From: a virus
IMG/VR virus record: IMGVR_UViG_3300045988_021153
Location: 1 to 41,572 of that record
Direction: 5' to 3' (one strand)
Length of the DNA stretch: 41,572 nt
This document shows, piece after piece, positions 3,164 through 39,278 of the stretch. Each line of letters starts with the position of its first letter. Position 1 is the first letter of the stretch. Made by a program: the position numbers and the translations under genes. The notes under the pieces were generated by a model, which worked only from the letters and a program-made list of their open reading frames with translations, was not told the origin of the DNA and made no database searches.

Positions 3164-3845
3164 GGACGCTCTGACAAGCTGCAACCACAGCAAGGGCGGC
3201 TGCCGCCCGAAATACATCGTGGTGCATTATTTCGGGGCGCTCGGCACGGCTGCCAGCGTGGCGGAGTGGTTTAAAAATCCGCAGGCCAGAGCCAGCGCCC
3301 ACTATGCCGTGGATGAGAAGGACATCATCTACCGCTGCGTGAAGGAGTCCGACATTGCGTGGCACTGCGGCGACGGCCAGAAGCATCCGGAGTGCCGCAA
3401 CTGGAATTCCATCGGCGTGGAGGTTCGCCCGAGGAAGGTCGACAAGGCGCGTCTCGGCGCGTATGATACGGACTGGTACTTCGATGAGGCGACGCTTGAA
3501 AACGCCGTGTGGCTGATCAGGCGGCTCATGAAGCAGTACAACATCCCCGCAGAGAACGTCATCCGGCACTACGACGTGTCCGGGAAGATGTGTCCGAGGC
3601 CGTTTGTCGGGGACGATGTGAATACCCACTACAACACGTCCGGCAATGTGCAGTGGGCGAGATTTAAAGAAAGGATCGATGATGAAGTGGTAGAAAAATC
3701 GAAAATGATCGTGGACGGCAAGGAGGTCTCCGTCGAGCGCATCCTAAAGGACGGCACGAACTATGTCAAGGTGCGCGACATCGCCGCCGCGCTTGATCTG
3801 AAGGTGTCGAACAAGGGCAGCATCGCGGTGCTGGAAACGAAGTAA
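3150..3845 (+). CDS. Endolysin: N-acetylmuramoyl-L-alanine amidase (Amidase_2/PGRP type) with a C-terminal Cu-amine-oxidase-N-like wall-binding domain
   Basis: RBS aaaggagg precedes the ATG at 3150. Motifs: YIVVHY, ASAHYAVD, DIAWHCGD, NSIGVEV, RHYDVSGKMCP. C-terminus: DGKEVSVERILKDGTNYVKVRDIAAALDLKV. Confidence 0.9.
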   Translation: MPVIKDALTSCNHSKGGCRPKYIVVHYFGALGTAASVAEWFKNPQARASAHYAVDEKDIIYRCVKESDIAWHCGDGQKHPECRNWNSIGVEVRPRKVDKARLGAYDTDWYFDEATLENAVWLIRRLMKQYNIPAENVIRHYDVSGKMCPRPFVGDDVNTHYNTSGNVQWARFKERIDDEVVEKSKMIVDGKEVSVERILKDGTNYVKVRDIAAALDLKVSNKGSIAVLETK

Positions 3846-3854
3846 GGCAAGCCG

Positions 3855-4079
3855 ATGCTGCGGGGGCTGCCGAGTCTGAGCCGCAGCGATTGGGAGCATT
3901 TGATCGAGGAATGGATTTTGTCGGAGCGATACCGGCGAATCCTGAAACGGAAGATCCTTGACGATTGGAGCCACGAACGCATTGCCGAGCGCGAGGGCTT
4001 GAGCGTAAACGGCGTCAAGAAGATCATAGCGCGGTGCGTGATCGTACTGCGGGAACATGCAACAGAGCCGCCCGGATAG
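3855..4079 (+). CDS. Small sigma-70 region-4-like HTH protein
   Basis: 74 aa. LSERYRRILKRKILDDWSHERIAEREGLSVNGVKKIIARCV resembles a region-4/LuxR-type HTH. Confidence 0.55.
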   Translation: MLRGLPSLSRSDWEHLIEEWILSERYRRILKRKILDDWSHERIAEREGLSVNGVKKIIARCVIVLREHATEPPG

Positions 4080-4088
4080 GGCGGCTCT
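4064..4088 (+). terminator. Hairpin at the end of the HTH gene (no U-tract)
   Basis: agagccgccc-ggata-gggcggctct, a 10-bp stem. The stop codon lies in the loop. The hairpin is followed by tacag, so it is not a canonical intrinsic terminator. Confidence 0.35.
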
Positions 4089-4122
4089 TACAGCAGGAAC
4101 GAAAATTTAATATTCTGTTGCA

Positions 4123-4151
4123 TTTACAATGATCTTAATTTGTTCTATAAT
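4123..4151 (+). promoter_or_regulatory. Sigma-70-type promoter of the low-GC moron
   Basis: TTTACA (4123..4128), 17-nt spacer, TATAAT (4146..4151), lying 34 nt upstream of the ATG at 4185. Confidence 0.6.
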
Positions 4152-4184
4152 GGCATCAAAACTAGAGAAGGAGATCATACTACA

Positions 4185-4403
4185 ATGTGCAAGCCTATTT
4201 ATGCGAATTCACTGACTGTTACTGCGAACGAGGCAAAGAATGAATTCATTTTTACATTTAAGCATAAATATCCGGTAGTTGGAGCGAATGGCGTTGTGGA
4301 TAGCGATCAGGAAGAAACGGTGGCCGCAGTGATCGTAAATGAACAGTTGGCCGAGGCTCTTCCGGAGATGATGTCTAAAGTCCTAAGTGAGCAGGTGGAT
4401 TGA
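4185..4403 (+). CDS. Hypothetical protein, DUF3467-like pattern
   Basis: RBS gaaggag precedes the ATG at 4185. IYANSLTVTANEAKNEFIFTF...VAAVIVNEQLAEALPEMMSKVL resembles the YxN..v....sEFxxxF...A..L layout of DUF3467. This is from memory, not searched. Confidence 0.55.
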   Translation: MCKPIYANSLTVTANEAKNEFIFTFKHKYPVVGANGVVDSDQEETVAAVIVNEQLAEALPEMMSKVLSEQVD

Positions 4404-4762
4404 TGCCTAACTTTTTTGAAGTTGTAGATAGAAACGGAATAAAAGTTTACTGTACAAAAGAGCAGTGGGATTCTCATGTAGCTCTTAACCACAGCATTAT
4501 GGTTTCAAACGTCGACGCGATTGTGGAGACAATCAGGGAGCCGGAACTGGTTTTACCAAGTCACGACACGAATCCTCCACTGGATGAACGAAGGATATAC
4601 ACAAAAGAATCAAAAAGTGCTACATACTACCCGAAGCTCAAATATACGCACGTCGTTGTGTCTGTCTGCGGCGGATCGGGCGAAGTTGTAACCGCATATC
4701 CTAATAACAACAAGAAAAGCGGCTGTGGAGAAGGTGAGGCGATATATGTTGCAGAAGAATAG
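4403..4762 (+). CDS. Putative toxin-like protein (partner of the DUF2283-like gene)
   Basis: TGATG stop/start overlap. The pattern IKVYCTKEQWDSHVALNHSIMVSNVDAIVETIREPELVL...YTHVVVSV..GEVVTAYP is typical of small nuclease-fold toxin candidates encoded next to DUF2283 genes. Confidence 0.6.
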   Translation: MPNFFEVVDRNGIKVYCTKEQWDSHVALNHSIMVSNVDAIVETIREPELVLPSHDTNPPLDERRIYTKESKSATYYPKLKYTHVVVSVCGGSGEVVTAYPNNNKKSGCGEGEAIYVAEE

Positions 4763-5003
4763 CATCGGATTTGACTACGACAAGAAATTCGACGTCCTGT
4801 ACATTGCCCTCGGTGACCGCAGTAATTCTTACGGTGATGATTCCGACGGGAATGTGATCTATCTGAAAGACATTGACACGGATGAATTGACCGGGATAAC
4901 GATCATGAATTTTAAGAAGAAGTATATCGAGAATAAACTTCCTGCATTTTCAAAGAGCATCCGAAAGGTGCTGCATGACGCTGAGAAAGTAGTTATGCAG
5001 TAG
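4746..5003 (+). CDS. DUF2283-like protein (putative antitoxin)
   Basis: RBS aggtgagg precedes the ATG at 4746, which overlaps the upstream gene by 17 nt. Signature: GFDYDKKFDVLYIALGD...DGNVIYLKDIDTDELTGITIMNFKK. Confidence 0.65.
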   Translation: MLQKNSIGFDYDKKFDVLYIALGDRSNSYGDDSDGNVIYLKDIDTDELTGITIMNFKKKYIENKLPAFSKSIRKVLHDAEKVVMQ

Positions 5004-6749: not shown

Positions 6750-7808
6750 TCAGGGATTTTTACTGTTGTTAGCATATTGGTTAGCATTTGCTCCGAAAAA
6801 GGCGGCCATTTTGTTCTGACTTTTGAGCCTGGCAGCGGCGGCAAGGTGCGTGTAAATCTTGTGCATCGTTTGATAGTCAGCCCAGCCGCCGAGCTCCATC
6901 GTCTCCTGCTCCTGCAAGCCGAGATAAAATGCCAGAGACGCGAAGCTATGGCGAAGACCATGCACGCCGACCTGAGGGAGATCGTTGTCGCGGCAGAGCT
7001 GGTTGATCTGAATACGGAGCGTGTTGGCGTGAAATGGATATACAAGGCCATCCGGCTGGTGCGGAGCCGTGCGGCGAATTGCATCGACAAGGGCTGGAAT
7101 CATGATCGGAACGACGCGGCGAGAGGAGGCGTTTTTATTGGTCGGCTTGTGAACGAGCACATTGTCTTCGCTCATAACGGCTGCACCGTGGACGGAAATG
7201 GTGTTTGCGGACAGATCGATTTTGCCAAAGGTCATGGCAAGGATCTCGGAACGGCGAAGGCCGTGAAGCGCAAGCAGCGCGGCAACCTCGAACGACTTTC
7301 CGTGAACAAGATCGACGAAGCGAAGAACTTCGTCCGGCTCCAGCCACGAAGGGTCAGCCGGAACGAGCTGAGGAAGGCGCACGTCCGGCGGCGTCATTCC
7401 GGCATGACGCATAGATGTGCGCAAAAAGCTCCATGCATTTTTTAACGTCTTGGCAGATGTGAGGTCGGCTTCTACGTCGATCACGCGCTGCCAGTTTTTT
7501 ATTTTTGAGGCAGGCTTGTCGGCAATGCTCACAAAACGGTGGTCGCGGATTGTCGCGTAGCCGCGGACTGTGGAGGGCGATGCCGTTTTGCGGATGCTAT
7601 CAATGTAGTCGGCCATGAGGTCGCGGACAGTCTTATCCGTTCTGAATTTGCTGTCGTGGATGTCGGCGCGGTGCTGGGCTTTGATAAGCTGCGCCTGCTT
7701 GATGCAGTCGGAGCGGGTGAGGGCGGAGACGGGGATGCTCTCGCCGCCGAGGCGGAGCTGGATAAACCATGTGCCGGATTTCAGTTTGCGAGGCTCGGGG
7801 ACTTTCAT
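6750..7808 (-). CDS. int: Tyrosine recombinase / phage integrase
   Basis: 352 aa. RBS ggaggtg. Catalytic-type motifs: ALHGLRRSE, HGLRHSFASL, GGWADYQTMHKIYTH. Adjacent to the tRNA-derived attP. Confidence 0.95.
   Translation of the reverse strand: MKVPEPRKLKSGTWFIQLRLGGESIPVSALTRSDCIKQAQLIKAQHRADIHDSKFRTDKTVRDLMADYIDSIRKTASPSTVRGYATIRDHRFVSIADKPASKIKNWQRVIDVEADLTSAKTLKNAWSFLRTSMRHAGMTPPDVRLPQLVPADPSWLEPDEVLRFVDLVHGKSFEVAALLALHGLRRSEILAMTFGKIDLSANTISVHGAAVMSEDNVLVHKPTNKNASSRRVVPIMIPALVDAIRRTAPHQPDGLVYPFHANTLRIQINQLCRDNDLPQVGVHGLRHSFASLAFYLGLQEQETMELGGWADYQTMHKIYTHLAAAARLKSQNKMAAFFGANANQYANNSKNP
6768..6787 (+). repeat. Two direct GTTAGCAT repeats (candidate arm-type sites, right of the core)
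   Basis: GTTAGCAT occurs at 6768..6775 and 6780..6787, inside the 3' end of int. Confidence 0.5.
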
Positions 7809-7866: not shown

Positions 7867-8256
7867 TTATGCACGGAACCAACCGACGGTGGGACTCAGG
7901 ATATCCACCACCAGAGCAAAAGCGCAAAGCGCGACGATGCCGAGCAGGACAAGGGTGGTGATGCGGTGCATTTTCAGAGACTTCCGAAGATGCTCGCGCT
8001 GGACACGGAGGCTTTTGTTTTCCAGCCGAAGCAGCTCGGAAACGGACTCCGGAGCGGGAGGCGAAATGCCGAAGTATGCGTTCATGTCGATGCCGAGGGC
8101 ATGGCAGATCGGGCCGACGGTATAGACGGAGGCGCTTTTTGATTCGCCGCGCAGGTATTGAGAAACCGTATTGAGGGCGAGGCCGGCACGGTCGGCGATG
8201 ATCTGGTTTGTGAGATGCTGCGCATCCTTCGCTTCGCGGCAAAGCTGCCACAACAT
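7867..8256 (-). CDS. XRE-family HTH protein with a C-terminal transmembrane anchor
   Basis: HTH region: HLTNQIIADRAGLALNTVSQYLRGE. Coiled-coil: LLRLENKSLRVQREHLRK. TM helix: ITTLVLLGIVALCAFALVV. The start at 8256 was chosen over 8328, and the RBS is weak. Confidence 0.7.
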   Translation of the reverse strand: MLWQLCREAKDAQHLTNQIIADRAGLALNTVSQYLRGESKSASVYTVGPICHALGIDMNAYFGISPPAPESVSELLRLENKSLRVQREHLRKSLKMHRITTLVLLGIVALCAFALVVDILSPTVGWFRA

Positions 8257-8420
8257 TTTTTCCAAAAAAATCACTCCAAACACACAACTGGGGCGTGAAA
8301 GCCCACGAAAAGGGATGGACTTAACCATTGGTAAAAGCGTATGGTTGAACTACAAGCGCTCCCAATCGCTTGCAGGAACCAAAGGCCCGTGCCGGATTTC
8401 GGCACCCGGCGCGGGTGGGA

Positions 8421-9932
8421 TCAACCGATTGGCCGCGTATACCCGGCGGCTTTTGCCTCGGTCACCGTTGACACATAACGATCTGCGACAACAGAATCGT
8501 AGCACTTATCAAACGGAAGATAGAAATACATTTCACCGCCTGCACCCATGGCGCACTTAACAGCAGGATAGTTGCGCAAATCAACGGAATAGTTTTCATA
8601 ATAGTGGAGATTTGGGAAATGCGCAAACGCGGCTTTTGCCTCTGCAGAGATGGAACAGGAACAAACAAGGTGACCGTCTACGCGTATATCAGGATGCTTC
8701 GCCTGAAAGAGAGAAACGGTTCCGAATAGCTGCGTGACAACGTTGGTATGAAGCTCCTTTTCAGAAGCCCAGTATTTACACTGGACAACGCAGAGCTTTG
8801 ACAGATCGCGCTTGAATACAAGAAGGTCGCAGCCCAGATCGCCTTTCCCACATTCGGCACCGTTGTATTGGACAAAGTTACCGGCTCGCTCGTACTGAGA
8901 GCCAACATACCGCTCGAATTCAAGGCCAAGCTGCGGGCGGTTTTTCTTCTTAGCGTTCCACGCATTCAGCGCGATCTGGTACCTGTCCTTTGAATTCCAT
9001 TCGTACAGTGAGAGCAGAGACATGCATTTTTTTCGATCCTCTGCGGACGAAATCAAAGGAAGCCACATATTCTTAGGGGGAACAAGCTTTTCAGGAGGCT
9101 CGGATACGCTGACGGCAAGAGAAGTCTTGAGCTGTTCAAGAGCAGAAAGCACTTTCTCCGCACGCCGCTTTTCCTTTTCAACGGATTCCCACCGCGCGTT
9201 CAGCTCTGAAAGCGAGGACTCGACCGCCTGCGTGTCCAATGTGCTGAGGAGACCAAGGTCAACCGCGAGGTAATACATATGCTTGCAGGGCTGGCGCCGA
9301 AACTGAAAGTCAGGGCAGGTGCAATCGTACAAAGTTGTATGATAGATGCCGTGCAGGCCGGAGATATTCGCGCTTATCTCGACAGGAGAATCGTAAGAAA
9401 TAGGCTCATTCAGCGCGGAGTACAGACGCGGATCCTCAATAAAGCTATAATCCTTCGCCGCCAAGAATGCAGGGGTGGAGTGATATGGCTCCATAAATGC
9501 CAAGGCACGATCCCGCAAGGCGTGCATATTTCTCATGTATAAGTCGAAGCAAACCCGTCTCTCTTTCTCAGAAGCGTCTTTTTCACCCTGCGCGTGGCCG
9601 TCAGAATAGCTTTTGGCCTCCGCAGCGGCGATGGCTTTTTCCTGTCTGGCCATATAATCGTGCTCGGCAGATTTCAACACTTCGCGGCTGGAATTTTCGC
9701 ATTCACATCTTACACGACTACGGATGCGAGGGAGAAGCCAGAGCGATACTGGGATCGTGACGCAGAGGCCAAGAAAATAGAACAGCTCGGATATATGTTC
9801 CAGAATGCCGATGAGCGTCTGGGATCTGTCCTCCAAATGGATACTGAGTTCTTCGACAAGAGAACCCAACAACCAAGAAAGAAACGAAGCGCCGACAAAA
9901 GCAAGGATTTTCTCGGCCAATGGCAACACCAC
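8421..9932 (-). CDS. Membrane-anchored SWIM zinc-finger / Mrr-like (PD-(D/E)xK) nuclease; candidate defence protein
   Basis: 503 aa in a lower-GC stretch. Two N-terminal TM helices. SWIM finger DCTCPDFQFRRQPCKH (CxC-x9-CxH). Mrr_cat-like core LEFERYVG...GDLGCDLLVFK...VVQCKYW. C-terminal motif YFYLPFDKCYDSV..TVTEAKAAGYTRP. GTG start without a clear RBS. Confidence 0.8.
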   Translation of the reverse strand: MVLPLAEKILAFVGASFLSWLLGSLVEELSIHLEDRSQTLIGILEHISELFYFLGLCVTIPVSLWLLPRIRSRVRCECENSSREVLKSAEHDYMARQEKAIAAAEAKSYSDGHAQGEKDASEKERRVCFDLYMRNMHALRDRALAFMEPYHSTPAFLAAKDYSFIEDPRLYSALNEPISYDSPVEISANISGLHGIYHTTLYDCTCPDFQFRRQPCKHMYYLAVDLGLLSTLDTQAVESSLSELNARWESVEKEKRRAEKVLSALEQLKTSLAVSVSEPPEKLVPPKNMWLPLISSAEDRKKCMSLLSLYEWNSKDRYQIALNAWNAKKKNRPQLGLEFERYVGSQYERAGNFVQYNGAECGKGDLGCDLLVFKRDLSKLCVVQCKYWASEKELHTNVVTQLFGTVSLFQAKHPDIRVDGHLVCSCSISAEAKAAFAHFPNLHYYENYSVDLRNYPAVKCAMGAGGEMYFYLPFDKCYDSVVADRYVSTVTEAKAAGYTRPIG

Positions 9933-10049
9933 CGGTAAAATGATAAGCGGGGAACTGCTATTTACAGTCTAGCCCCTTTTCCCAGATGGTGCAAGATGGA
10001 AATGTGAACGAAAAATGAACGGAGTTTTTGTGGAGAAAGGGAGGAAACG

Positions 10050-10148
10050 ATGGAAAAGGCAAGAGAAAGACTACAAAATATCCTTGAGCGGGCGACGGAT
10101 GAGCAGATCTGGCTGCTGCTGTGGCTGGCAGAAAAGATCCTTCGATAA
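10050..10148 (+). CDS. Possible 32-aa ORF
   Basis: RBS aaagggagg precedes the ATG at 10050. MEKARERLQNILERATDEQIWLLLWLAEKILR, followed immediately by a strong terminator. Confidence 0.35.
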   Translation: MEKARERLQNILERATDEQIWLLLWLAEKILR

Positions 10149-10150
10149 GA

Positions 10151-10189
10151 AATCACCGGAAGCGGTCATTCGCTTCCGGTGATTTTTTT
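10151..10189 (+). terminator. Intrinsic terminator (14-bp perfect stem)
   Basis: aatcaccggaagcg-gtcatt-cgcttccggtgatt followed by ttttt. Overlaps the last codons of the minus-strand repressor gene. Confidence 0.75.
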
Positions 10190-10552
10190 CGCGTACTCGT
10201 AGATGTTGTCCCAGAACTCAGGGGGCATTTCCATTGCCGCAGCGATGCAGCGCTTGCGGGTGGATTCGTCGGCCTCGGACAGAACGTCGGCAAACATCAG
10301 GGCCATGCGCTCGTTCTCGCTTCGCTGGACGTACATCGCCCCTTCTCCGGTCTCCAGCCACGCAAGCGACACGCCGAATTCCCGGCAGATGTCCGAGATT
10401 GTGCGGTCTGTAAATGGTTTTCGGCCAGAACATAGGGCAGAAATGTGAGGCTGCGTCAAATGCAGTTTGTCAGCTAACTCGGATTGCGTCAAGCGTAGAT
10501 CTTTCATCAAGTAGACGAGTCGTTCACCGATTGTGCTCAATGGGTTCACCAC
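10166..10552 (-). CDS. CI-like XRE-family repressor
   Basis: IGERLVYLMKDLRLTQSELADKLHLTQPHISALCSGRK is a classic XRE HTH. Divergent from the plus-strand early genes. A TTG at 10540 has better RBS spacing (aaaggtgg-N8) than the GTG at 10552. Confidence 0.85.
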   Translation of the reverse strand: MVNPLSTIGERLVYLMKDLRLTQSELADKLHLTQPHISALCSGRKPFTDRTISDICREFGVSLAWLETGEGAMYVQRSENERMALMFADVLSEADESTRKRCIAAAMEMPPEFWDNIYEYAKKITGSE

Positions 10553-29723: not shown

Positions 29724-32700
29724 ATGGCAAAGAAACGGACAGGACTGGATGCGCTCCGGGAATATGAGGCGAGAAGCGGACGGCAGACGCAGAGCGAGAG
29801 CCAGCCGGCAGAAGACTCCGGCGGCACGTGGCGCAGCGGCCTTGACGCGCTGCGGCAGTTCGAGGCAAACGGCGGCGGGCAGAACGTCAAGAACGGCCCG
29901 TATAATCCGAACTACCGAACCATGACGCGGGCTATGTATGAGTCGGCGTATGAGCGATACAAGCGCGCGGCGGAAGCCCAGGAACGCTACAGCCGCGCGG
30001 CGGACGCCGTGGGCAACAATCCGGTCGGCGGGTATCTGCGGGCGATGCAGCAGCGGCAGCCGCAGGGCCGCGCCGCGAAAACAATCGACCATGATCAGCA
30101 GAGCGGGTACCGGCGGACACGTGAGGTCAAGTCGGCACAGGTGCAGCCGACGATCGAACATGACCAGCAGAGCGGGTATCTGCGGACGCTGCGCATGAAG
30201 GGCAGCGCGGAATATCTGACACAGTCTCAGGAAGATCCGGAATGGGAGACGGTGCGGCAGGATCAGGCGCGCGGCGGGAAGCGGACGCAATACGAGATGC
30301 GGCGGCAGATCGAGCAGCTTGAAAGGGCGCGGGACTATGCGCTTTCGATGCAGGCCGGAGACCCGGAGGGGCTTCCGGAGCTGCGCGGGGCATACGAGGC
30401 GGTGAACGCCGGGCGCACAAAGCCGATGACGCTGACGGAGATGGACGAGGCGCTGCGGGAAATGAAGGTCAGAAAGCAGAACGCCGCGACGCTGGCGAAC
30501 GAGGCCATGACCGCGCAGGAGCTTGAACGGAAAAAGGATGCGATCTATGCACTGGCCTTTTATCCGGAGGAATGGACGCCGGAGCAAAAGCAGGCGGCGA
30601 GAGGCATTCTCGAAACGCAGCGCGGCGGGAGCGGAATTTTCGGCGGCATGGACCGCGCACCATATGCCTTCGCGCCGTACATCGAGGCGGTGCGGAGCGG
30701 AGACATGGACCGCGCGGACGAGTGGGAGCAGATCTACAACATGCTCTACTCGCGCCTTTTTGAGAAAACAACGGCGGTCACCGAGGGCTTCGCGGAGGGA
30801 CTTGGGCTGCGGTCGGCAGAGAAGGTCATCGGAGCGGCAACGGGCGCGGAGAATCCAGCATGGGAGGCATACATGCGCTCGGTGCAGGTGGCAAAGGCGC
30901 AGAATCCGGCGCTGAGCGCGGGCGGACAGATCGCAGGCTCGCTTGCGCTGATGGGCGGCATCAGCAAGGGCGTCGGCGCGGCAAGCGGTGCGCTGCTCGG
31001 AACGAAGGCGGCACAGTTCGGGACACTCGGCAGGACGGCGCTTTCGATGGGCCAGTCGGCGCTGACGTTCGCGGCGAGAGAGGCCATTCAGGGAGCGGGC
31101 GCGGTGGCGACCGGAGAGAAGACCGGCGGCGCATACGCGCAGGACATCCTCGCAAGCGGCGCGGGCGGCGCGGCCGGTGCGCTCGTATCCGGGCTTATCT
31201 CCACGAACATGGCAGACTGGCTGAGAAGAACAGGAAACAGCAAGCTGTTCTGGGAGTTCGTGCGGCAGAGCGCGAGCGCATACGCCTTTTCCGGCACGAG
31301 CGTTGCAACAAGCGCGATGCTCGGGAGCGAGAAAAAGAGCGCGAACGAGATCGCGACGGAGCTTGGAACGGCCTTCCTGTTCTCGCTCGTCAGCGGATAC
31401 ATGAACACGATGCGCGAAACCAAGATGGCGAGCGCAGCCGTGGAGCAGAAGTACGAGACGATTTCACAGCAGCTGGACGCAATCGGAAAGCACCTTGACG
31501 GCGGCAGGAAATTCAGGACGGAGGAGGAATTCACGCAGGCCGTCGAGGATCTGCGCAGGACGGTGCAGGGCCTCAAGGCGGATGTGCAGGGAACATACTA
31601 CGCAGGACAGCAGGACTTCGTCAATCAGATGGTGGCGGCGCTCGACCGCATCGACTACAACCTGCTTTCGATGCTCCCGGGAGCGGATGCCGGAACGGCA
31701 GCAGCTTCGGCGGCCTCGACGGCGGCAGCCGGGACAGGCGGCGTGGCTGCGGCAGAAGCACAGAAGCTGATGCAGGAGGCGTCCGCGGCGCTGGCAGAGG
31801 GCACACAGGGCGTGCCGACCGCACCGGTACAGCCGGGGGATGCAGGCGGGAAGGGCGCGGCAGCGGCGGCACAGGCGCTCACAGAGGGCACGACGGCAGC
31901 AGAGCAGGCGGTGCAGGTGCCGCCGGCACAGCCGGCGATGCCTGTTCCACCGGATATGGCGAAGGAGGCCGAAGCTGCACAGCGGGAGGCGAACTTCCAG
32001 ACGCACAGCAGGTACGCAGAGGAGCGGGACGCGCGGGCGCGGGATGCGGAAGAAGTGTCGCAGGCGCGGGCGCAGGAATACACAGAGGCGATCAACGACG
32101 CGGAGGCGGACGCAGCAGATGCGGCTTTTGAGAAACTGAACAAGGCGGAGGTCAGCGGCGCATTGGACGCGCAGACTCGCTGGCAGGCAGAGGATGCCCG
32201 TGCGGAGCGGCAGTTTGAGGTGGAAAGCCGTGAGGACACGGACCGGGCGCTGAGCGAGGCTGCGCAGCGGTACGGCTATGACGAGCGGATGACGAGCGTG
32301 CTGCTTTCCGGGTACAGCGGGGCGCAGAGCACGCAGCAGTACGCCGAGGCAGTGAACGCGGCTTACGAGTACGGCAAAAGCGGAATGAGCCGCACAGCGG
32401 CGCAGAGAGCCGCACAGGGCATTGACAAGGCACTGGCAGACGAGGCGTGGAGCGCCGGAAAGGAGATTGCAAATGGCGAAAAAGCAGGAGCCGCGCGTAT
32501 TGATGACGGCGGCAAACGGAATGCAGGTATGGATTCCGGAAAGCCGGTTGGAGCAGTGGCAGGCGGCGCAGGCGGCACAGCGGCGCGATCCGCAGCGGGG
32601 CGCGCAGTCGCGGAGAGAATTGGCCTCGAAAATCGCGTCAGCGCTGCTGGGCAGCCGTACCTGAGCGGAAAGGACATCGGGCTGAGCAAGGGCTCTGCAC

Positions 32701-35700
32701 AGCGGAGCTTTCGCGAGGCGCCGCAGAGCACATGGACCGACGGCATGAAGGCCGCCGCCGAGACGCTCCGGAGCGCTGGCTTTGCGGATGTGCATTTCAC
32801 GGTGGGCTCGATCAGCGTGGAGAACCAGCGGGCGAAGGTCACGCGGTACGCAGACGGCGTGGCCGCAGGAAATTCGGTATGGGTGAATGCGACGGCGAAG
32901 AAATGGAGCGTTCAGCAGCTTGCAGACCACGAGTCGTTCCACCGGCAGGTGCAGGACGCACCGGGACTGCTGGACAGCGTGCGGGCGGTTGTGGCAGACG
33001 AGCTGGGAGATAGCGGCATTCGGGAGCTTGCACAGCGGTATGCCGAGGCATACGAGGGCTGCTATGACGGCGCGGAGCTGGAGGCGTACATCGAGGAGAT
33101 CTGCGCGGACGCCTACGCAGGCATGGACCGGTTTCCGGAGGAGAAGGCAAAGATCATACAAAAAGCCGCCCAGCGGGCGCAGGACGCGCAGCAGGCGGCA
33201 GAAGAAAACGGCGGGACCAGAGGCCCGCCGGAGAAATATAGCTATGCAGGAGAGCTCGCGCGAACGGCTGACAGCAAGTCTTTGGCCCGCGCGGAACAGA
33301 TGGAAGAAAACGGCGCTTCGGCGGAAGACATCTTCCGGGAGACCGGATGGTTCAAGGGTGCCGACGGGCAGTGGCGGTTCGAGATCGACGACAGCAAGAT
33401 GGAGTTCCGCAGAGACGGTGATGTCCGGCTGATGGAGGAAGAACCGTACCGCAGGATGCAGGAGCTTTCTGACAAGTGGGCTGCCAGCTTTGAAAAAGGC
33501 GGCGAGGAACTCACGGAGGCGGAAAACGCAGAACTGGAGGCACTTCAAGATCAATACGTTGATCGAGTATGGGAAGAAAAATATGAGCTTCAGGACTTCC
33601 TGAAGCACGACGATCTTTACAGAGCATATCCGAAGCTGCGGCATATGTCGCTGATATTCCGGCCGATGTCCATTGAGAATTATGGCTATTACTCGCCGAA
33701 GGATGGCGCGATTGTGATGAACAGCGACCTGATCGGTGCTCCGGAAAAAACGCTCATTCATGAAATTCAGCACATTATTCAGTCCATGGAGGGATTCGCG
33801 CGAGGCGCAAGCCCGAAATACTGGAATGACCGCATGGAGGAGGGCTTCTCGAAAAAGAACGCCGCAGGCGAGGAGATGCTACCGAACGAGCTTTACAGGA
33901 ACACAGCCGGTGAGATCGAGGCGCGGGACGTGGCAGAACGTCGGAATCTGAGCGCGGAGGAACGCCGAAACCGGATGCCGGATACGGGGAATGCCGATAC
34001 GGTGTTTGCAGAGGCTGGATGGCAGACTGCGATGGACTACGACCCGGAAACAGCCAGCATCAAAGAGCAGGTCGAAAATAGCCGCGAGGCGCTTAACGCG
34101 ATGGATGTGGTTGCGCGGGCGTCCGTTCCGACAAATCTTAAAACCAAGGATTCGGCTGCCGCATGGGCGGCAGAGCGGCTGAAAAGCACAGGATACCGCA
34201 TAGACCGGCAAGGGTACGGCGAAATCTATTTCAGCAAGAAGGATATGGACAAGGGGCTTCGGTACGCCGATACGGCGGAAGAAAAAGCAGCACTTGCCGT
34301 ATTACCTCAAGTGCTGAAGCGAGGAATTGAGATCGGAGACCACGCAAACCACAAAAATAGAGCGAAGCAGACGGTGACGTTTGCGGCGCCTGTGGAGCTG
34401 AATGGAACGCGTGGAAACATGGCTGTGGTCGTAAACAGAAACGGCAACCACTATTATGCTCACCGGATCGTCATGCCGGACGGAAGCGTATTTCGCTTTT
34501 CAGGGAATGCAGAAAATGCAGCGCAAGAACTGTCCCGGGGAGTGACCGTTTCCGGATCTCTTGCCGACACCACAAGCGCTGCATCTACGGACAGTATACG
34601 CAGATCAGAGCGGGAAAGTCAAGAAAAATTTTCTGCATCTGAGGAAGTGTCGGAAGCCGACGCCGGGGCGGAGGGGTCGGAGCTTCAGGTCGAGAAGCTG
34701 CCGCAGGCGAACCGGGATCAGTTTATGCGCTTTGCAACGAAGATCACGGACGATCTTGTCACGCCGCTGACTGCGCAGATGGAAACGCTGCGGAAGGAAA
34801 TGCGCCCGCGCGTGCTGGAGCTGGTGGACGAATTTCTGGAAAACGACGCGCTGAAAAGGTCCTCGGTCAATGCGATCTTTGAAGAAGCGTATGACCGCGC
34901 GCTGGAGCTAAACAGGGAGTTCTCCGAGAAGTACGCGACGCTGCAATACACCATCCGGAAAACTCCGGTCACGTTCACGGAGGAGGACACGAGACAGATC
35001 GAGCAGTACGACTATTTCGATGAAGCAGCGCTGCGGAAGCTGACGATCAAGGAAAAGGGCGGGGCGAGCATCGGTGAGCTGTATTCCGATCTTTCCGGGA
35101 TGCTGCCGGAGCTGTTCCCGTCCGGAATCAAAAATCCGGCGAAGCAGATCATGCGGATCGCGAGCGTTTACAAGCGCATCAGCAAGGCACAGGCGCTGGC
35201 ACAGCAGGTGGACAGCACGAACCCGGAATACTTCCGAGAAAATGCGTACAACGAATTTTTGGAGCAGCTGCGAAAAATCGTGCCGAAGATGCGAACAGAG
35301 CGGGAGCTTGCGCAAATCAACATCGAGGAAGAAGCGAAGATGGAAGCCTATATGGCGGAGCGCGAGAGAAGGATCGCGGAGGAGGATGCGAGACTGGCTG
35401 AGGAAGAAGCCGCAAAGGCTCCGCCGGAGGTCTTTGAAAGCCTGACGATGGACAGCATCCCGAAGAAAGCGCAGGACTATCTGCGCAGGGTGCGCGGGCA
35501 GACGGCGGCGGCGATCCAGCAGACGCTTTCGATGCCGTTTGCGGCGCGGCAGGAGGTGCTCAAGCCAGCCCTTGAGGGCATGATGAACGAATATCTTCAG
35601 ACCGGCAGGATCTCGCAGGAGACGATAGACAGGAGCTTTGAGGAATCGTACAGGCGCGGCGTGGAGATGGACACGGAATTTTACGACGAGTACAAGGACG

Positions 35701-38700
35701 TGAAGACGCGGCTGCGCGATCTGAAGGTCACGCTGTCGGAGACGGATCGGGCGGACATTGCGGACTTTGACGATTTCCGCAGGGCGGCATTCGGGAGGCT
35801 GCGCATTGCAGACGAGGGCGGCCTGCCGGTGGACACTGCCTACAACCAGATGCGGGAGATGGCGCCGGAGCTGTTCCCGGCGGGCATCACGCATCCGGCG
35901 GATCAGCTGATGCAGATGTTTGAGGTGTCCAAGCGCATCGAGAGGGTGCAGCGGTCACTGGACGAGTTCCACGGGGAAGAAGCAGAGGAATTTAAGCGCT
36001 GGGCCAAGAACGACTACGAGGCGAGCGTTGAGAACATGCTGGGCTCGCTGCGCGTGGCGCGGCGGTATGCCGAGGCGCGGATGCGGCAGAAGCAGGCGCG
36101 GGCCGTGCCAACGACGCTGGATGAGGTCAAGGCGCTGCACACAGAGCTCAAGAAGCTGCGCCGGACGTATGAGCGGGCGGCGGCCAAGAACCTGCTGACG
36201 GCGGAGGACAACAATGTCCTAAACAAACTGCTGCGCGGCGATCTCGCGTCGGAGGACGTGCAGGGCATGGAGAACGCAAAGGGCATCCTTGCCATGTACG
36301 AGGCCAAGGCAGACTATGACGAGACGGCTGCCAAGATCGCGGACTGGCGGCGCTATCAGAAGGCACAGAGGCTCGCGGTCGCCGATGCGGCGCTTAAAAA
36401 CGCGGATCAGGCGAAGGACAAAGCCGCCGGCATCCAGTACAGCCGGGAGACGATGACGCGCAATGTCCGGGACATCTTCCCGGAGGCGGACGCGGAGATC
36501 ATCAACAGGACGTACTTTGAGCCCGTCCGGACGGCCAGCGCGAACGCGAATAAGCTGAAAAACCAGCTGCGAGAGCAGGTCAAGGCGCTGGACTTGAGCC
36601 GGAAGGTCAGGACGGGAGACGCCGTGAGCGAGGCGCATGCGGTGCAGCTGCTGGGCGAGGCGCAGGACAACATCCGGTATCTCGAGCAGCACCCGCGGGC
36701 GCAGGACCGGGACGGAAAGACGCTCGATGAATGGCACGCAATCGTGCGGGATCTGTGGGCCACGAGCCCGGGTCTGGACAGGGCGAAGATCGAAAACGCC
36801 GTGGAGACGTTCCGGAAGATCTATGACGGACTCTTTGAACAGATGAATGACGTGCGCGTCCGAAACGGCTATGAGCCGATCAACTACCGGCAGGGCTATT
36901 TCCCACACTTCCAGCCGGGGACGACGGACGGCATTCTTGGGCTGATGGGAAAGGCGCTCGGCATCGACGCGGAGGTATCGGCCCTGCCGACGACCATCAG
37001 CGGCCTGACGCACACCTTTAAGCCTGGTATCACCTACTTCGGGAATGCGCTGGAGCGCATCGGATTTGACACGGCGTATGACGCGGTGGAGGGCTTTGAC
37101 AAGTATGTGGAGGGCGCGGCGAGCGTGATCTGCTACACGGACGTCATCCAGAATCTGCGGGCGCTTGCGCAGCAGGTGCGATACCGAACATCGGACGAAG
37201 GACTGCGGGAGCGGGTGGACGACGTCCGGGCCAGAGACGATCGGACCGAGAACCAGAAGGAACTGGAGATCGAGGCGATCATGAAGCAGGGGCGCTTTTC
37301 GCTTTCGAACTTCGCGATCGAGCTGGACGAATACACAAATCTGCTGGCAAACAAGAAAAGCAAATACGACCGAGCCGTGGAACACCTTACGAATCGCAAG
37401 GTCTACAAGCTGCTCAAGGCGTGGCAAAGCCGCGTGGCGGCGAACATGGTCGCGGTCAACCCGGCGTCGTGGCTGACAAACTTCGGCGTCATCACGCAGG
37501 CAGGAGCACAGCTCAAGACGACATCCGTGCTCAAGGCGATGGGACAGACGCTCAAGGGATGGACGAAAGACGACGGCTTTGTAGAACGGAGTTACTTCCT
37601 CGTAAACCGGCGCGGAAGTGATCCGCTTGTCCGCACCTGGCAGCAGAGCGCGAGCGCGGTACTGTCAAAGCCGATGGACTGGATCGACACGTTCTCGGCG
37701 GACACCATTGTCCGGGCGCGGTACATGGAGAACATCGCGCGCGGCATGAGCGAGGAGGAGGCGATGCGCGAGGCGGACGACTTCGCGGCAAACGTGATGG
37801 CAGACCGCTCGAAGGGCGCGATGCCGACGCTCTTTGAGGCCCGCAATCCGTTCGCGAAAATATTTACACAGTTCCAGCTTGAGGTGAACAATACCTTCTC
37901 GTATCTTTTCAAGGACCTTCCGCGCGATATGCGAAAGAAGGGCATGTTCGCACTGGCCTATGCGCTTTTTAAGTTCCTGATCGGTGGGTACATCTACAAC
38001 GAGGTGTACGAGCACTTCATCGGGAGACGGACAATGCTCGACCCGCTGGGGATCGTCAACGACACGGTGGGCGATCTGACGGGGTACGAGCTCAACAATC
38101 TGGCGGACGCGGCCATGGGCGGCGGACTTATCAAGGAGTCGGAGCCGGAGAGCGTGATCAGGAGCGTCGCAAATCTCGCTGTAAACGTCGGGCAGGAGCT
38201 TCCGATGATCGGAAGCCGAATCGGCGGGGGTAAGTATCCGTTTATGAATTCGTTCGGTGATATTGGAAACGCCATTGATGCGCTTGATGCGGAGAACAAG
38301 ACGGGCGGAGAGAAGGCCGCGCAGGCGGCAAGGGAGCTGATCAATCCGGCGGCATACTGGCTGCTGCCGTTCGGCGGCGGGCAGGTCAAGAAAATGTGGC
38401 AGGGCATCAGCGCCCTGAAGCGGCAGGGCAGCTATACGGCGGACGGGCGGATGCAGTATCCGATCTACACCGACCGGAAGGGCGACATGGCGAGCGCAGT
38501 CGCACGAACAATGCTGTTCGGCAAGAGCGCGACGCCGGGGGCGCAGGCGTGGGTCGAGGCGGGTTTCGGCGCACTGAGCGAGAAAGCCACGCAGACGTAT
38601 GAGGCGATGCGCGCCGGTGGCGTTGACCAGAGAGACAGCTATGAGCTTATCAAGGCCATGTCCAAGATCAAGAAGACCGACGACGCGACAGCGAAGGAAC

Positions 38701-39278
38701 TCAAGATGCAGATGCTGCTGTCCTTTGACATCGAGGACAGCGGGAAGGTGCTGTACTACTACAACATGATGGCGAGCGACAAGGAGCGGGCACAGATCGA
38801 CAAGCTGCTGGAAGCCGGCGCGGACGTGGGAGAGTATCTGAGATACATTCAGGCGGCCGCCGGGGTGACCGGCGAGAAGGACGCCGACGGCAAGACGATC
38901 TCCGGAAGCGTGAAGGACGAGACGCTCCAGCTGATCGATGGCCTCGATCTGACGCCGGAGCAGAAGACGGCGCTTGCTGCGGACAGCTACACGATGACCG
39001 GGTTTGAGCCGTGGACGGAAAACCACGACAGGCTGTACAAGGCCGTTTCGACCGGAAAGGACCTGCGCAGCACGCTCAAGGAGCTGGAGAAGGCCGGATA
39101 TGAGCCGAAGGAGATCCGCGCGGCAATCACGGAGATGTTCCGCGATGAATATCTTGCGGCAGACAAAGCCGGGAAGGCACGGCTCAAGGGATACCTGCGA
39201 AACGCGTTCATGGCGTGCGGGCTTTCCAAGAAGGAAGCGGAAAACAAGATCAAGAAATGGGAGGAGGCACAGAAGTGA
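29724..39278 (+). CDS. Giant polyvalent virion/ejection protein (3,184 aa)
   Basis: One uninterrupted ORF with RBS aaggaga. Gly/Ala hydrophobic segments. Two HExxH motifs (HESFH at 32928..32942; HEIQH at 33759..33773). A nuclease/LPD-like module (about 34200..34500). A duplicated 161-aa module. A tape-measure-like C-terminal third. Confidence 0.9.
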   Translation: MAKKRTGLDALREYEARSGRQTQSESQPAEDSGGTWRSGLDALRQFEANGGGQNVKNGPYNPNYRTMTRAMYESAYERYKRAAEAQERYSRAADAVGNNPVGGYLRAMQQRQPQGRAAKTIDHDQQSGYRRTREVKSAQVQPTIEHDQQSGYLRTLRMKGSAEYLTQSQEDPEWETVRQDQARGGKRTQYEMRRQIEQLERARDYALSMQAGDPEGLPELRGAYEAVNAGRTKPMTLTEMDEALREMKVRKQNAATLANEAMTAQELERKKDAIYALAFYPEEWTPEQKQAARGILETQRGGSGIFGGMDRAPYAFAPYIEAVRSGDMDRADEWEQIYNMLYSRLFEKTTAVTEGFAEGLGLRSAEKVIGAATGAENPAWEAYMRSVQVAKAQNPALSAGGQIAGSLALMGGISKGVGAASGALLGTKAAQFGTLGRTALSMGQSALTFAAREAIQGAGAVATGEKTGGAYAQDILASGAGGAAGALVSGLISTNMADWLRRTGNSKLFWEFVRQSASAYAFSGTSVATSAMLGSEKKSANEIATELGTAFLFSLVSGYMNTMRETKMASAAVEQKYETISQQLDAIGKHLDGGRKFRTEEEFTQAVEDLRRTVQGLKADVQGTYYAGQQDFVNQMVAALDRIDYNLLSMLPGADAGTAAASAASTAAAGTGGVAAAEAQKLMQEASAALAEGTQGVPTAPVQPGDAGGKGAAAAAQALTEGTTAAEQAVQVPPAQPAMPVPPDMAKEAEAAQREANFQTHSRYAEERDARARDAEEVSQARAQEYTEAINDAEADAADAAFEKLNKAEVSGALDAQTRWQAEDARAERQFEVESREDTDRALSEAAQRYGYDERMTSVLLSGYSGAQSTQQYAEAVNAAYEYGKSGMSRTAAQRAAQGIDKALADEAWSAGKEIANGEKAGAARIDDGGKRNAGMDSGKPVGAVAGGAGGTAARSAAGRAVAERIGLENRVSAAGQPYLSGKDIGLSKGSAQRSFREAPQSTWTDGMKAAAETLRSAGFADVHFTVGSISVENQRAKVTRYADGVAAGNSVWVNATAKKWSVQQLADHESFHRQVQDAPGLLDSVRAVVADELGDSGIRELAQRYAEAYEGCYDGAELEAYIEEICADAYAGMDRFPEEKAKIIQKAAQRAQDAQQAAEENGGTRGPPEKYSYAGELARTADSKSLARAEQMEENGASAEDIFRETGWFKGADGQWRFEIDDSKMEFRRDGDVRLMEEEPYRRMQELSDKWAASFEKGGEELTEAENAELEALQDQYVDRVWEEKYELQDFLKHDDLYRAYPKLRHMSLIFRPMSIENYGYYSPKDGAIVMNSDLIGAPEKTLIHEIQHIIQSMEGFARGASPKYWNDRMEEGFSKKNAAGEEMLPNELYRNTAGEIEARDVAERRNLSAEERRNRMPDTGNADTVFAEAGWQTAMDYDPETASIKEQVENSREALNAMDVVARASVPTNLKTKDSAAAWAAERLKSTGYRIDRQGYGEIYFSKKDMDKGLRYADTAEEKAALAVLPQVLKRGIEIGDHANHKNRAKQTVTFAAPVELNGTRGNMAVVVNRNGNHYYAHRIVMPDGSVFRFSGNAENAAQELSRGVTVSGSLADTTSAASTDSIRRSERESQEKFSASEEVSEADAGAEGSELQVEKLPQANRDQFMRFATKITDDLVTPLTAQMETLRKEMRPRVLELVDEFLENDALKRSSVNAIFEEAYDRALELNREFSEKYATLQYTIRKTPVTFTEEDTRQIEQYDYFDEAALRKLTIKEKGGASIGELYSDLSGMLPELFPSGIKNPAKQIMRIASVYKRISKAQALAQQVDSTNPEYFRENAYNEFLEQLRKIVPKMRTERELAQINIEEEAKMEAYMAERERRIAEEDARLAEEEAAKAPPEVFESLTMDSIPKKAQDYLRRVRGQTAAAIQQTLSMPFAARQEVLKPALEGMMNEYLQTGRISQETIDRSFEESYRRGVEMDTEFYDEYKDVKTRLRDLKVTLSETDRADIADFDDFRRAAFGRLRIADEGGLPVDTAYNQMREMAPELFPAGITHPADQLMQMFEVSKRIERVQRSLDEFHGEEAEEFKRWAKNDYEASVENMLGSLRVARRYAEARMRQKQARAVPTTLDEVKALHTELKKLRRTYERAAAKNLLTAEDNNVLNKLLRGDLASEDVQGMENAKGILAMYEAKADYDETAAKIADWRRYQKAQRLAVADAALKNADQAKDKAAGIQYSRETMTRNVRDIFPEADAEIINRTYFEPVRTASANANKLKNQLREQVKALDLSRKVRTGDAVSEAHAVQLLGEAQDNIRYLEQHPRAQDRDGKTLDEWHAIVRDLWATSPGLDRAKIENAVETFRKIYDGLFEQMNDVRVRNGYEPINYRQGYFPHFQPGTTDGILGLMGKALGIDAEVSALPTTISGLTHTFKPGITYFGNALERIGFDTAYDAVEGFDKYVEGAASVICYTDVIQNLRALAQQVRYRTSDEGLRERVDDVRARDDRTENQKELEIEAIMKQGRFSLSNFAIELDEYTNLLANKKSKYDRAVEHLTNRKVYKLLKAWQSRVAANMVAVNPASWLTNFGVITQAGAQLKTTSVLKAMGQTLKGWTKDDGFVERSYFLVNRRGSDPLVRTWQQSASAVLSKPMDWIDTFSADTIVRARYMENIARGMSEEEAMREADDFAANVMADRSKGAMPTLFEARNPFAKIFTQFQLEVNNTFSYLFKDLPRDMRKKGMFALAYALFKFLIGGYIYNEVYEHFIGRRTMLDPLGIVNDTVGDLTGYELNNLADAAMGGGLIKESEPESVIRSVANLAVNVGQELPMIGSRIGGGKYPFMNSFGDIGNAIDALDAENKTGGEKAAQAARELINPAAYWLLPFGGGQVKKMWQGISALKRQGSYTADGRMQYPIYTDRKGDMASAVARTMLFGKSATPGAQAWVEAGFGALSEKATQTYEAMRAGGVDQRDSYELIKAMSKIKKTDDATAKELKMQMLLSFDIEDSGKVLYYYNMMASDKERAQIDKLLEAGADVGEYLRYIQAAAGVTGEKDADGKTISGSVKDETLQLIDGLDLTPEQKTALAADSYTMTGFEPWTENHDRLYKAVSTGKDLRSTLKELEKAGYEPKEIRAAITEMFRDEYLAADKAGKARLKGYLRNAFMACGLSKKEAENKIKKWEEAQK
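34698..35180 (+). repeat. Internal protein-level repeat, copy 1 (aa 1659-1819 of the giant ORF)
   Basis: Aligns colinearly with copy 2: ...EEAYDRALELNREFSEKY...MLPELFPSGIKNPAKQIMRIASVYKRI. Confidence 0.8.
35457..35939 (+). repeat. Internal protein-level repeat, copy 2 (aa 1912-2072)
   Basis: ...EESYRRGVEMDTEFYDEY...MAPELFPAGITHPADQLMQMFEVSKRI. Same 161-aa length as copy 1, with diverged DNA. Confidence 0.8.

Follow-up and report, generated by a model that had tools for sequence, protein, structure and literature searches.

The stretch of DNA analysed here, called the window throughout, is the whole of the IMG/VR virus record IMGVR_UViG_3300045988_021153 (41,572 nucleotides). It represents the genome of a temperate gut phage and encodes a large terminase, a portal, a major head protein, an endolysin and a replication initiator. 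From relatives in metagenome-assembled genomes of Oscillospiraceae, Faecalibacterium and Gemmiger, we infer a phage host among the Clostridia. The subject of this study is a minus-strand open reading frame (ORF) at positions 8421..9932, located in the lysogeny module between a CI-like repressor gene and an integrase gene. Its product combines a predicted N-terminal membrane anchor, a SWIM finger and an Mrr-type nuclease domain, and an earlier note on this DNA had proposed it as a candidate novel single-gene defence.

The ORF encodes 503 amino acids from a GTG start codon at 9932. The true start is likely the TTG codon at 9920, which is preceded by GGTGG and yields a product of 499 amino acids, the form chosen by gene callers on most contigs. 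Although chance ORFs are common at 59% GC, the ORF is a real gene because it has conserved full-length homologues (39-52% identity). Profile matches of the neighbouring genes confirm the position assigned to the ORF by the earlier note, between an integrase/helix-turn-helix (HTH) gene pair and a CI-like gene. The reported drop in GC content relative to the flanks was also found: the nuclease gene has 50.6% GC versus 58.9% in the whole window, which places it in the lowest 4.7% of equal-sized windows, and its GC at third codon positions is 0.56 versus 0.66-0.87 in other genes. Near-identical alleles of the gene differ at 14 variable sites in total, and the search for variation hot spots was therefore uninformative.

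The architecture of the protein was reconstructed from profile searches, hydropathy and an AlphaFold2 model of the monomer, built on a 12-sequence alignment. The mean predicted local distance difference test score (pLDDT) of the model is 76.9, with values of 88-95 over amino acids 290-503; the predicted template modelling score is 0.47, and the relative placement of the domains is unreliable. Long helices are modelled at residues 5-35, 38-106, 109-150 and 234-272.

The N-terminal part contains two transmembrane (TM) helices predicted by hydropathy: helix 1 at amino acids 8-27 (9852..9911, minus strand, as are all other parts of the protein) and helix 2 at amino acids 49-68 (9729..9788), the latter followed by the Arg-rich segment PRIRSRVR. 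Their 19-residue Kyte-Doolittle means are 1.76 and 1.92, respectively. Both hydrophobic stretches, already recognized in the earlier note, are kept in the full-length homologues, which score 2.0-2.5 at the corresponding positions. In family members with a single TM helix, the mean number of lysines and arginines within 15 residues is 0.38 before the helix and 3.43 after it; in the two-TM forms the mean is 3.39 after the second helix. Since the positive charges follow the last TM helix, the positive-inside rule assigns the stalk, the SWIM finger and the nuclease to the cytoplasm, and the nuclease body is predicted to lie on the cytoplasmic face of the membrane. The cytoplasmic location fits the presence of a zinc finger and of invariant cysteines.

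The anchor continues into helical stalk 1 (amino acids 69-150; 9483..9728), modelled as the helices 38-106 and 109-150. Helical stalk 2 (amino acids 233-290; 9063..9236) separates the SWIM finger from the nuclease, contains the model helix 234-272 and shows 16-48% identity among the full-length homologues. The earlier note had described these parts as two coiled-coil regions. Their long helices are reproduced by the model; the coiled coil itself is suggested by these helices and by a weak profile similarity of the protein to the coiled-coil proteins SMC, Rad50, keratin and ATP synthase b.

The SWIM domain with its conserved lead-in occupies amino acids 151-232 (9237..9482) and matches Pfam SWIM (PF04434) with 24.5 bits against a cut-off of 19.6. 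The motif reads C204-x-C206-x9-C216-x-H218, with the zinc ligands encoded at 9279..9323, in full agreement with the CxC-x9-CxH finger proposed before. The Cys and His ligands are invariant in 36 relatives, of which 34 match Pfam SWIM. In the full model the region forms a beta-hairpin with helices at pLDDT 85-92. A fold search of the PDB with a domain-only SWIM model (pLDDT 71.7) returned no match at E<1.

Pfam and Foldseek identified amino acids 291-445 (8598..9062) as an Mrr-type PD-(D/E)xK nuclease, the range including a helical lead-in. The match to Pfam Mrr_cat_2 scores 22.0 bits, exactly at the cut-off of 22, and the assignment is upheld by the relatives: 33 of the 36 match Mrr_cat (best E 2.9e-14), and homologues carry precomputed PF04471 matches. 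To assess conservation, the window protein was aligned with 159 cluster representatives. Of these 160 sequences, 158-159 retain the catalytic candidates E340, D365, D369, Q384 and K386, and likewise H395 and E396. Because the catalytic residues are essentially invariant, the enzyme is probably active. Foldseek comparison with the PDB returned the nuclease domains of MspJI (4.8e-05), EndoMS/NucS, AF1548, Hjc, Cdn1/Card1 and Avs3, which confirms the PD-(D/E)xK fold. The core suggested by the earlier note is thus supported by sequence profiles and by the modelled fold, for the protein as well as for its family. A Pfam scan at E<=1 produced matches to SWIM and Mrr_cat_2 and a weak match to DUF4229 only, and a reader of modified DNA (Mrr_N, SRA) was not found. 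The fold search of BFVD retrieved Mrr-like domains only and no viral protein with the entire architecture.

The C-terminal tail (amino acids 446-503; 8424..8597), which contains the sequence YFYLPFD...GYTRP and is modelled at pLDDT of about 90, resembles the 42-residue NCBIfam domain 'sunset' (NF051437). The tail of the window protein scores 22.8 bits (E 6.7e-05) against it, below the cut-off of 27, and 33 of the 36 relatives match the domain at E<0.01 (best E 7.7e-07). The C-terminal motif of a nuclease-associated type that had been read from the sequence is therefore recovered at the level of the family, and falls short of the threshold in the protein itself. In the 160-sequence alignment the tail residues P456, K459, C460, P473, D475, Y478, A493 and G497 are near-invariant, and hence the tail belongs to the conserved body of the enzyme.

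The nuclease gene is the only gene of a cargo cassette at 8390..9958. The slot that holds it is flanked upstream by the CI-like HTH repressor gene (10166..10552, minus strand) and downstream by a gene for an XRE-type HTH protein with a C-terminal TM helix (HTH-TM; 7867..8256, minus strand, within a listed ORF 7867..8328), which lies directly upstream of the integrase gene. Slots were compared in 39 viral contigs whose HTH-TM gene is closely related to that of the window (53-99% identity). The blastn homology with five contigs lacking the nuclease (L091, L092, L098, L096 and L123) stops at 9958/9959 and resumes at 8389, and with two others (L114 and L118) it stops at 9987. As related phages lack exactly this stretch, the cassette boundaries can be placed at 8390 and 9958. 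The nuclease is present in only two of the 39 related contigs (L093 and L117, 99% identity), and the remaining contigs carry in the slot at least 13 unrelated types of cargo, mostly small membrane proteins. The same nuclease allele is also found beside a repressor only 33% identical to that of the window, and a near-identical flank (HTH-TM 88%) adjoins a divergent nuclease allele (53%) in contig L005. The slot is a recombinational hotspot and the nuclease gene an exchangeable cargo from a lower-GC source. The gene is accessory, as the earlier note had supposed, rather than a core replication or recombination gene.

Two neighbours were considered as possible partners of the nuclease. The HTH-TM gene as the second component of a two-gene system was rejected, since it is 85-99% identical in 33 phages without the nuclease. 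A divergently oriented 32-residue ORF on the other side of the cassette (10050..10148, plus strand) is likewise conserved whatever the cargo, and its role as a dedicated antitoxin or regulator is unsupported.

Two other types of slot cargo contain an Mrr-type nuclease: a soluble protein of 306 amino acids found in five contigs, and a protein of 304 amino acids with internal TM helices. Both align with the nuclease family over the Mrr core only, and both match PADLOC models, namely the Mrr-like end of ZorD, PDC-S02, LmuA and type IV enzymes. Examples of slot cargos located just upstream of the HTH-TM gene in contigs L090-L128 include L097 4731-5651, L109 1314-2228, L094 5030-5830, L100 5321-5833 and L096 5372-5797. 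Further cargos are a 266-residue N-terminally anchored protein, a zinc-ribbon and TM2-like protein, a YHYH-motif protein and small multi-TM proteins. PADLOC matches are absent for eight of the ten slot cargos tested. Three unrelated proteins of lysogeny modules end in a Cys-containing tail (...KYH..sC......GY.aC.rC.P): two slot cargos (L105 4875-5828 and L113 5284-5823) and an M78-peptidase-like protein (L008 561-1238). In its sequence pattern it looks like the 'sunset'-like tail of the nuclease with cysteines added.

The family of the nuclease is large. A word-index search detected 12 relatives, and its repetition with a 36-sequence profile gave those same 12. When 1.84 billion cluster representatives (clusters at 50% identity) were searched exhaustively with a profile, 4,509 hits at E<0.001 and 972 at E<1e-30 were obtained, and the near-orphan status of the protein was dropped on that account. 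Among the top 159 clusters, representatives have, by hydropathy, one N-terminal TM helix in 99 cases (62%), two in 36 (23%) and none in 24, so that one or two helices are predicted in 135 (85%); the SWIM signature is present in 95 (60%). A relative is encoded at 442 loci, counting one representative genome per species. The minimal form of the protein consists of a TM helix, approximately 150-200 residues, the nuclease and the tail, roughly 380-450 amino acids in all. It occurs in Bacillota, Verrucomicrobiota, Actinomycetota, Chloroflexota, Cyanobacteria, Planctomycetota, Pseudomonadota and one archaeon. Proteins with a SWIM finger were encountered only on contigs with the label Clostridia/Eubacteriales, apart from one short contig binned as Bacteroidales. 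Within the subfamily of the window protein, identity among full-length homologues is highest in the SWIM region (66-79%), followed by the tail (52-72%), the Mrr core (46-61%) and the TM hairpin (25-34%), and is lowest in the first stalk (15-28%). The source databases name the relatives that were looked up 'hypothetical protein', in a few cases 'Restriction endonuclease', or 'predicted nuclease with TOPRIM domain' only.

The genomic context of the relatives was studied in three sets of loci, on which genes were predicted by simple greedy ORF calling and neighbours classified by ad hoc profiles. At the homologue loci inspected by exact protein look-up, the gene is always located just downstream of a repressor-type gene (HTH, or M78 peptidase-like in L008). 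In most of them an integrase, either a tyrosine or a serine recombinase, is next downstream, and one locus adjoins HicAB. Among 79 genome loci, HTH_3 was found in 25 of the 73 immediate upstream neighbours, nine of which also contain Peptidase_S24, and an integrase is the immediate downstream neighbour in 18 of 75. Per-locus profile searches of the same 79 loci detected a same-strand HTH gene at position -1 in 24 and an integrase at +1 to +3 in 26, almost all of them in Bacillota. On IMG/VR viral contigs a relative is present at least 269 times; the best 80 of these loci have an N-terminal TM helix, called by hydropathy, in 74, a same-strand HTH gene just upstream in 55, an integrase within 2.5 kb downstream in 38, and both HTH and integrase in 35. 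The clustering of homologues in the slot between integrase and cI, for which the earlier note had proposed a test, is typical of Bacillota genomes and viral contigs, and does not extend to members from other phyla.

The closest functional parallel is SNIPE of E. coli, which consists of a TM segment, DUF4041 and a GIY-YIG nuclease and cleaves phage DNA during injection (PMC13190303). SNIPE without the TM segment becomes toxic, and an induced prophage is unaffected by SNIPE; its homologues have one TM helix in 59% and two in 7% of cases, within the first ~70 residues, their N-termini are poorly conserved and the nuclease is the most conserved domain (PMC13190303). Like SNIPE, the window protein unites in one chain a TM anchor at the N-terminus, an elongated middle region and a cytoplasmic nuclease at the C-terminus, all of which are here predicted from sequence. 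The two families also have in common the prevalence of one or two TM helices, a highly conserved nuclease and a poorly conserved N-terminal part, the TM/stalk region being the least conserved in the present family. In contrast to SNIPE, it contains a SWIM finger, an Mrr-type PD-(D/E)xK nuclease and a 'sunset' tail that are not homologous to DUF4041 and GIY-YIG. As neither of the latter two domains was found in the protein by Pfam at E<=1, it is not a member of SNIPE. SNIPE was characterized in E. coli, whereas the present gene is prophage cargo in a likely Clostridia host and its family is not known to interact with injection machinery; the likeness in mechanism is hypothetical. The concept proposed in the earlier note therefore has a precedent in SNIPE, published since, which follows the same logic, although the two proteins are not homologous.

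Other known systems resemble the nuclease in part. With Mrr/type IV enzymes and other Mrr_cat nucleases (PF04471, PF13156) it has in common the catalytic fold and the E...D(x3)D...QxK signature. Classical Mrr is a soluble protein with an N-terminal winged-helix DNA reader, whereas the window protein combines its nuclease with a TM hairpin, helical stalks, the SWIM finger and the C-terminal tail, and such a reader was undetected. Zorya (ZorAB with ZorC/D) and Kiwa are membrane-associated defences that target DNA (reviewed in PMC12904381). Like the system proposed here, they act on incoming DNA in connection with the membrane, where the phage enters; moreover, ZorD ends in an Mrr-like nuclease, which the sister cargos of the slot resemble. 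In contrast, Zorya and Kiwa are multi-gene systems with separate membrane sensors, whereas here the anchor and the nuclease belong to one polypeptide that matches no Zorya or Kiwa model.

The slot between integrase and repressor in temperate phages of Gram-positive bacteria is known to hold superinfection-exclusion genes, such as lactococcal Sie2009 and Ltp of S. thermophilus. The Sie proteins known from it prevent the injection of DNA; they are small, either membrane proteins or lipoproteins, and lack an enzymatic domain. The nuclease gene occupies the same genomic position, and its cargo type, variable, often membrane-associated and expressed in the lysogen to block incoming phages, would be the same; it differs from Sie2009 and Ltp in encoding a nuclease of 500 amino acids rather than a small non-enzymatic protein. 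The same likeness in position and cargo extends to the prophage defence hotspots known in P2 and P4 (PMC9122126). The principle of a membrane-bound nuclease carried in a prophage hotspot is known already. The family, its architecture and the link to the repressor-integrase slot in phages of gut Clostridia are undescribed; literature searches on the 'sunset' domain, on defence proteins combining SWIM, Mrr and transmembrane parts and on prophage-borne membrane nucleases yielded no paper about the nuclease family or the 'sunset' domain.

Protection of the lysogen from incoming genetic elements is, in our view, the probable function of the gene. The more specific proposal, that the nuclease does so by cutting foreign DNA where it enters through the membrane, is tentative, and we would put its chances slightly below even. 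Nuclease activity, target and protective effect are what we infer from the architecture, the conserved active site and the position of the gene. In the proposed mechanism, the N-terminal helical hairpin would serve as an anchor, and the long helical stalks would hold the endonuclease off the membrane on its cytoplasmic face. The phage would carry the nuclease as exchangeable cargo between repressor and integrase, and the protein would be made in the lysogen, where the gene is presumably expressed, or early after infection. Incoming DNA of superinfecting phages, and possibly of other elements, would be cut while crossing the membrane, and both the cell and the resident prophage would be protected. 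Held at the membrane, and probably auto-inhibited as well, the nuclease would leave the chromosome and the replicating DNA of its own prophage untouched, and this would account for the carriage of an Mrr-type enzyme without a companion gene in the cassette. The SWIM finger and the 'sunset' tail could be modules for DNA or partner binding and for gating, and by analogy with SNIPE the variable TM/stalk region may set what the protein associates with.

A wider reading is possible, and we hold it with some reserve. With this gene as its first example, a second class of injection-site nucleases could be recognized, independent in its evolution and formed by a large multi-phylum family of single polypeptides with a stalk-held Mrr-type nuclease and often a SWIM finger. 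Phages of gut Clostridia would trade its cassettes in the repressor-integrase hotspot for use against rivals, and self would be told from non-self by location rather than by sequence or modification.

Several observations weigh against cleavage at the site of entry. Membrane insertion and topology are predictions from hydropathy and charge, and the hydropathy scores of the window protein itself are moderate. The SWIM finger is the most conserved part of the protein, which is unexpected for a surface that tracks diverse phage proteins. The one promoter-like element upstream of the gene, detected by hand and uncalled by the scan, is weak, and so are the hairpin elements found by hand. SNIPE is not homologous, so that the analogy lacks the weight of descent. 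Outside Bacillota the family is not linked to prophages and stands alone among unrelated genes. Only some of these non-Bacillota loci have defence genes as neighbours (BREX PglX/BrxH, reverse transcriptases, HEC-06, SngC, a type II methyltransferase), and the association of non-prophage members with defence genes, uncorrected for background, is at most suggestive. Database comparison points in the same direction. In PADLOC-DB v2.0.0 none of the defence-system families matches the nuclease at E<=1, PHROGs contain no match to it, and sequence searches of the PDB with the protein and the family profile produced either nothing or coiled-coil noise (keratin, Rad50, ATP synthase b). No characterized homologue of the nuclease was found. 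The statement of the earlier note that the architecture corresponds to no named defence system holds for PADLOC, and has to be qualified by the existence of a large family. In the INPHARED phage collection there was no DNA match, and one marginal protein match covers the SWIM finger only.

The same architecture and genomic context would equally suit an abortive-infection or toxic effector. Perturbation of the membrane by injection, a holin or depolarization would then activate or release the nuclease, all DNA would be degraded, and the cell would die before the phage completes its cycle. Deletion of the TM segment of the analogous SNIPE does result in toxicity through cleavage of host DNA (PMC13190303), and Mrr-type effectors are present in Zorya, Lamassu and Avs, as seen from the PADLOC matches of the sister cargos and the Foldseek match to Avs3. 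No protease site, sensor domain or gene for a partner able to activate or release the enzyme was found, and the cassette contains a single gene; besides, the death of the host on superinfection is less profitable for a prophage than keeping the other phage out. Sequence alone does not separate this explanation from cleavage at entry, and we regard it as unlikely. A reader of modified bases is the missing piece in another explanation, according to which the protein is a membrane-anchored type IV enzyme that cuts only base-modified DNA, like Mrr and MspJI, and spares self by chemistry and not by location. The nuclease does belong to the Mrr_cat families, in structure it comes closest to the nuclease domain of MspJI, a modification-dependent enzyme, and sister cargos of the slot match PADLOC type IV models. 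Yet the nuclease itself matches no PADLOC type IV (mREase_IV) model, the Pfam scan detected no such reader, and the near-universal N-terminal TM anchor is left unexplained, which makes this explanation distinctly improbable.

The exchange of cargo in the slot bears on the last alternative, a function serving the phage itself: degradation of host or competitor DNA during establishment or induction, control of lysogeny, or an addiction module. In contig L008 the gene of a distant relative overlaps the integrase gene by 23 nt, suggesting co-expression; the conserved 32-residue ORF lies divergently beside the cassette; and one relative adjoins HicAB. On the other hand, the gene is dispensable, as 37 of the 39 close relatives lack it and have unrelated cargo instead. 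The 32-residue ORF and the HTH-TM gene are independent of the cargo and hence not dedicated partners, and members of the family also stand alone outside prophages in many phyla. A phage-serving function is therefore improbable, and we retain protection of the lysogen, with cleavage at the membrane as its tentative mechanism.

If this mechanism is correct, the distinction of self from foreign DNA by its location would not be peculiar to SNIPE, having evolved on two or more occasions from nuclease folds unrelated to each other. Hard-to-culture gut Clostridia would then use it widely, where prophage immunity shapes the spread of phages. The protein offers a possible first functional context for a bacterial SWIM finger and for the 'sunset' tail. 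A 1.5-kb single-gene cassette with obvious catalytic residues makes the hypothesis directly testable, and the hypervariable slot, with its mostly uncharacterized membrane proteins, provides a ready list of candidate exclusion and defence genes.

The genes flanking the slot have the following features. The tyrosine integrase (6750..7808, minus strand) matches Pfam Phage_integrase at 1.5e-11. The HTH-TM protein, listed as an ORF of 153 amino acids, probably starts at Met25; it has a helical linker and a strongly hydrophobic C-terminal TM helix (19-residue Kyte-Doolittle mean 2.9), is conserved across 39 viral contigs and has the appearance of a DNA-binding protein anchored in the membrane. The CI-like repressor matches Pfam HTH_3 at 1.7e-10, has a sub-threshold match to Phage_CI_repr (18.9 bits, cut-off 22) and matches PHROG families of transcriptional regulators or repressors. 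The 32-residue ORF, MEKARERLQNILERATDEQIWLLLWLAEKILR, is convergent with the CI-like gene and divergent from the cassette, and has a strong ribosome-binding site (GGGAGGAAACG-ATG). At the protein level it is 84-91% identical in L005/L006 and in ~17 IMG/VR contigs with any cargo.

A GC-rich hairpin, ACCGGAAGCG-aatga-CGCTTCCGGT, is located at 10140..10170 over the CI stop codon, between the convergent CI and 32-residue ORFs. It was uncalled by the scan and has the look of a terminator acting in both directions. The intergenic region before the nuclease homologue of L005/L006 (L005 2349-2612) contains a tandem near-repeat, AAAATATGTC(T/C)ATACTGT(A/T)A, overlapping a good promoter-like TTGCCA-17-TATACT. 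This near-repeat resembles an operator, and the corresponding part of the window showed no repeat of this type.

Two other regions of the window deserve mention. A second low-GC pocket (GC 0.44-0.50) follows the endolysin gene at ~3500..5000; it contains small ORFs at 4400..4762 and 4725..5003 without sequence relatives in the PDB, and may be another cargo region. The structural region contains an ORF of 3,184 amino acids (29724..39278, plus strand) with only one weak match, to a PHROG of unknown function; an ORF of this size is unusual for a phage of 41.6 kb.

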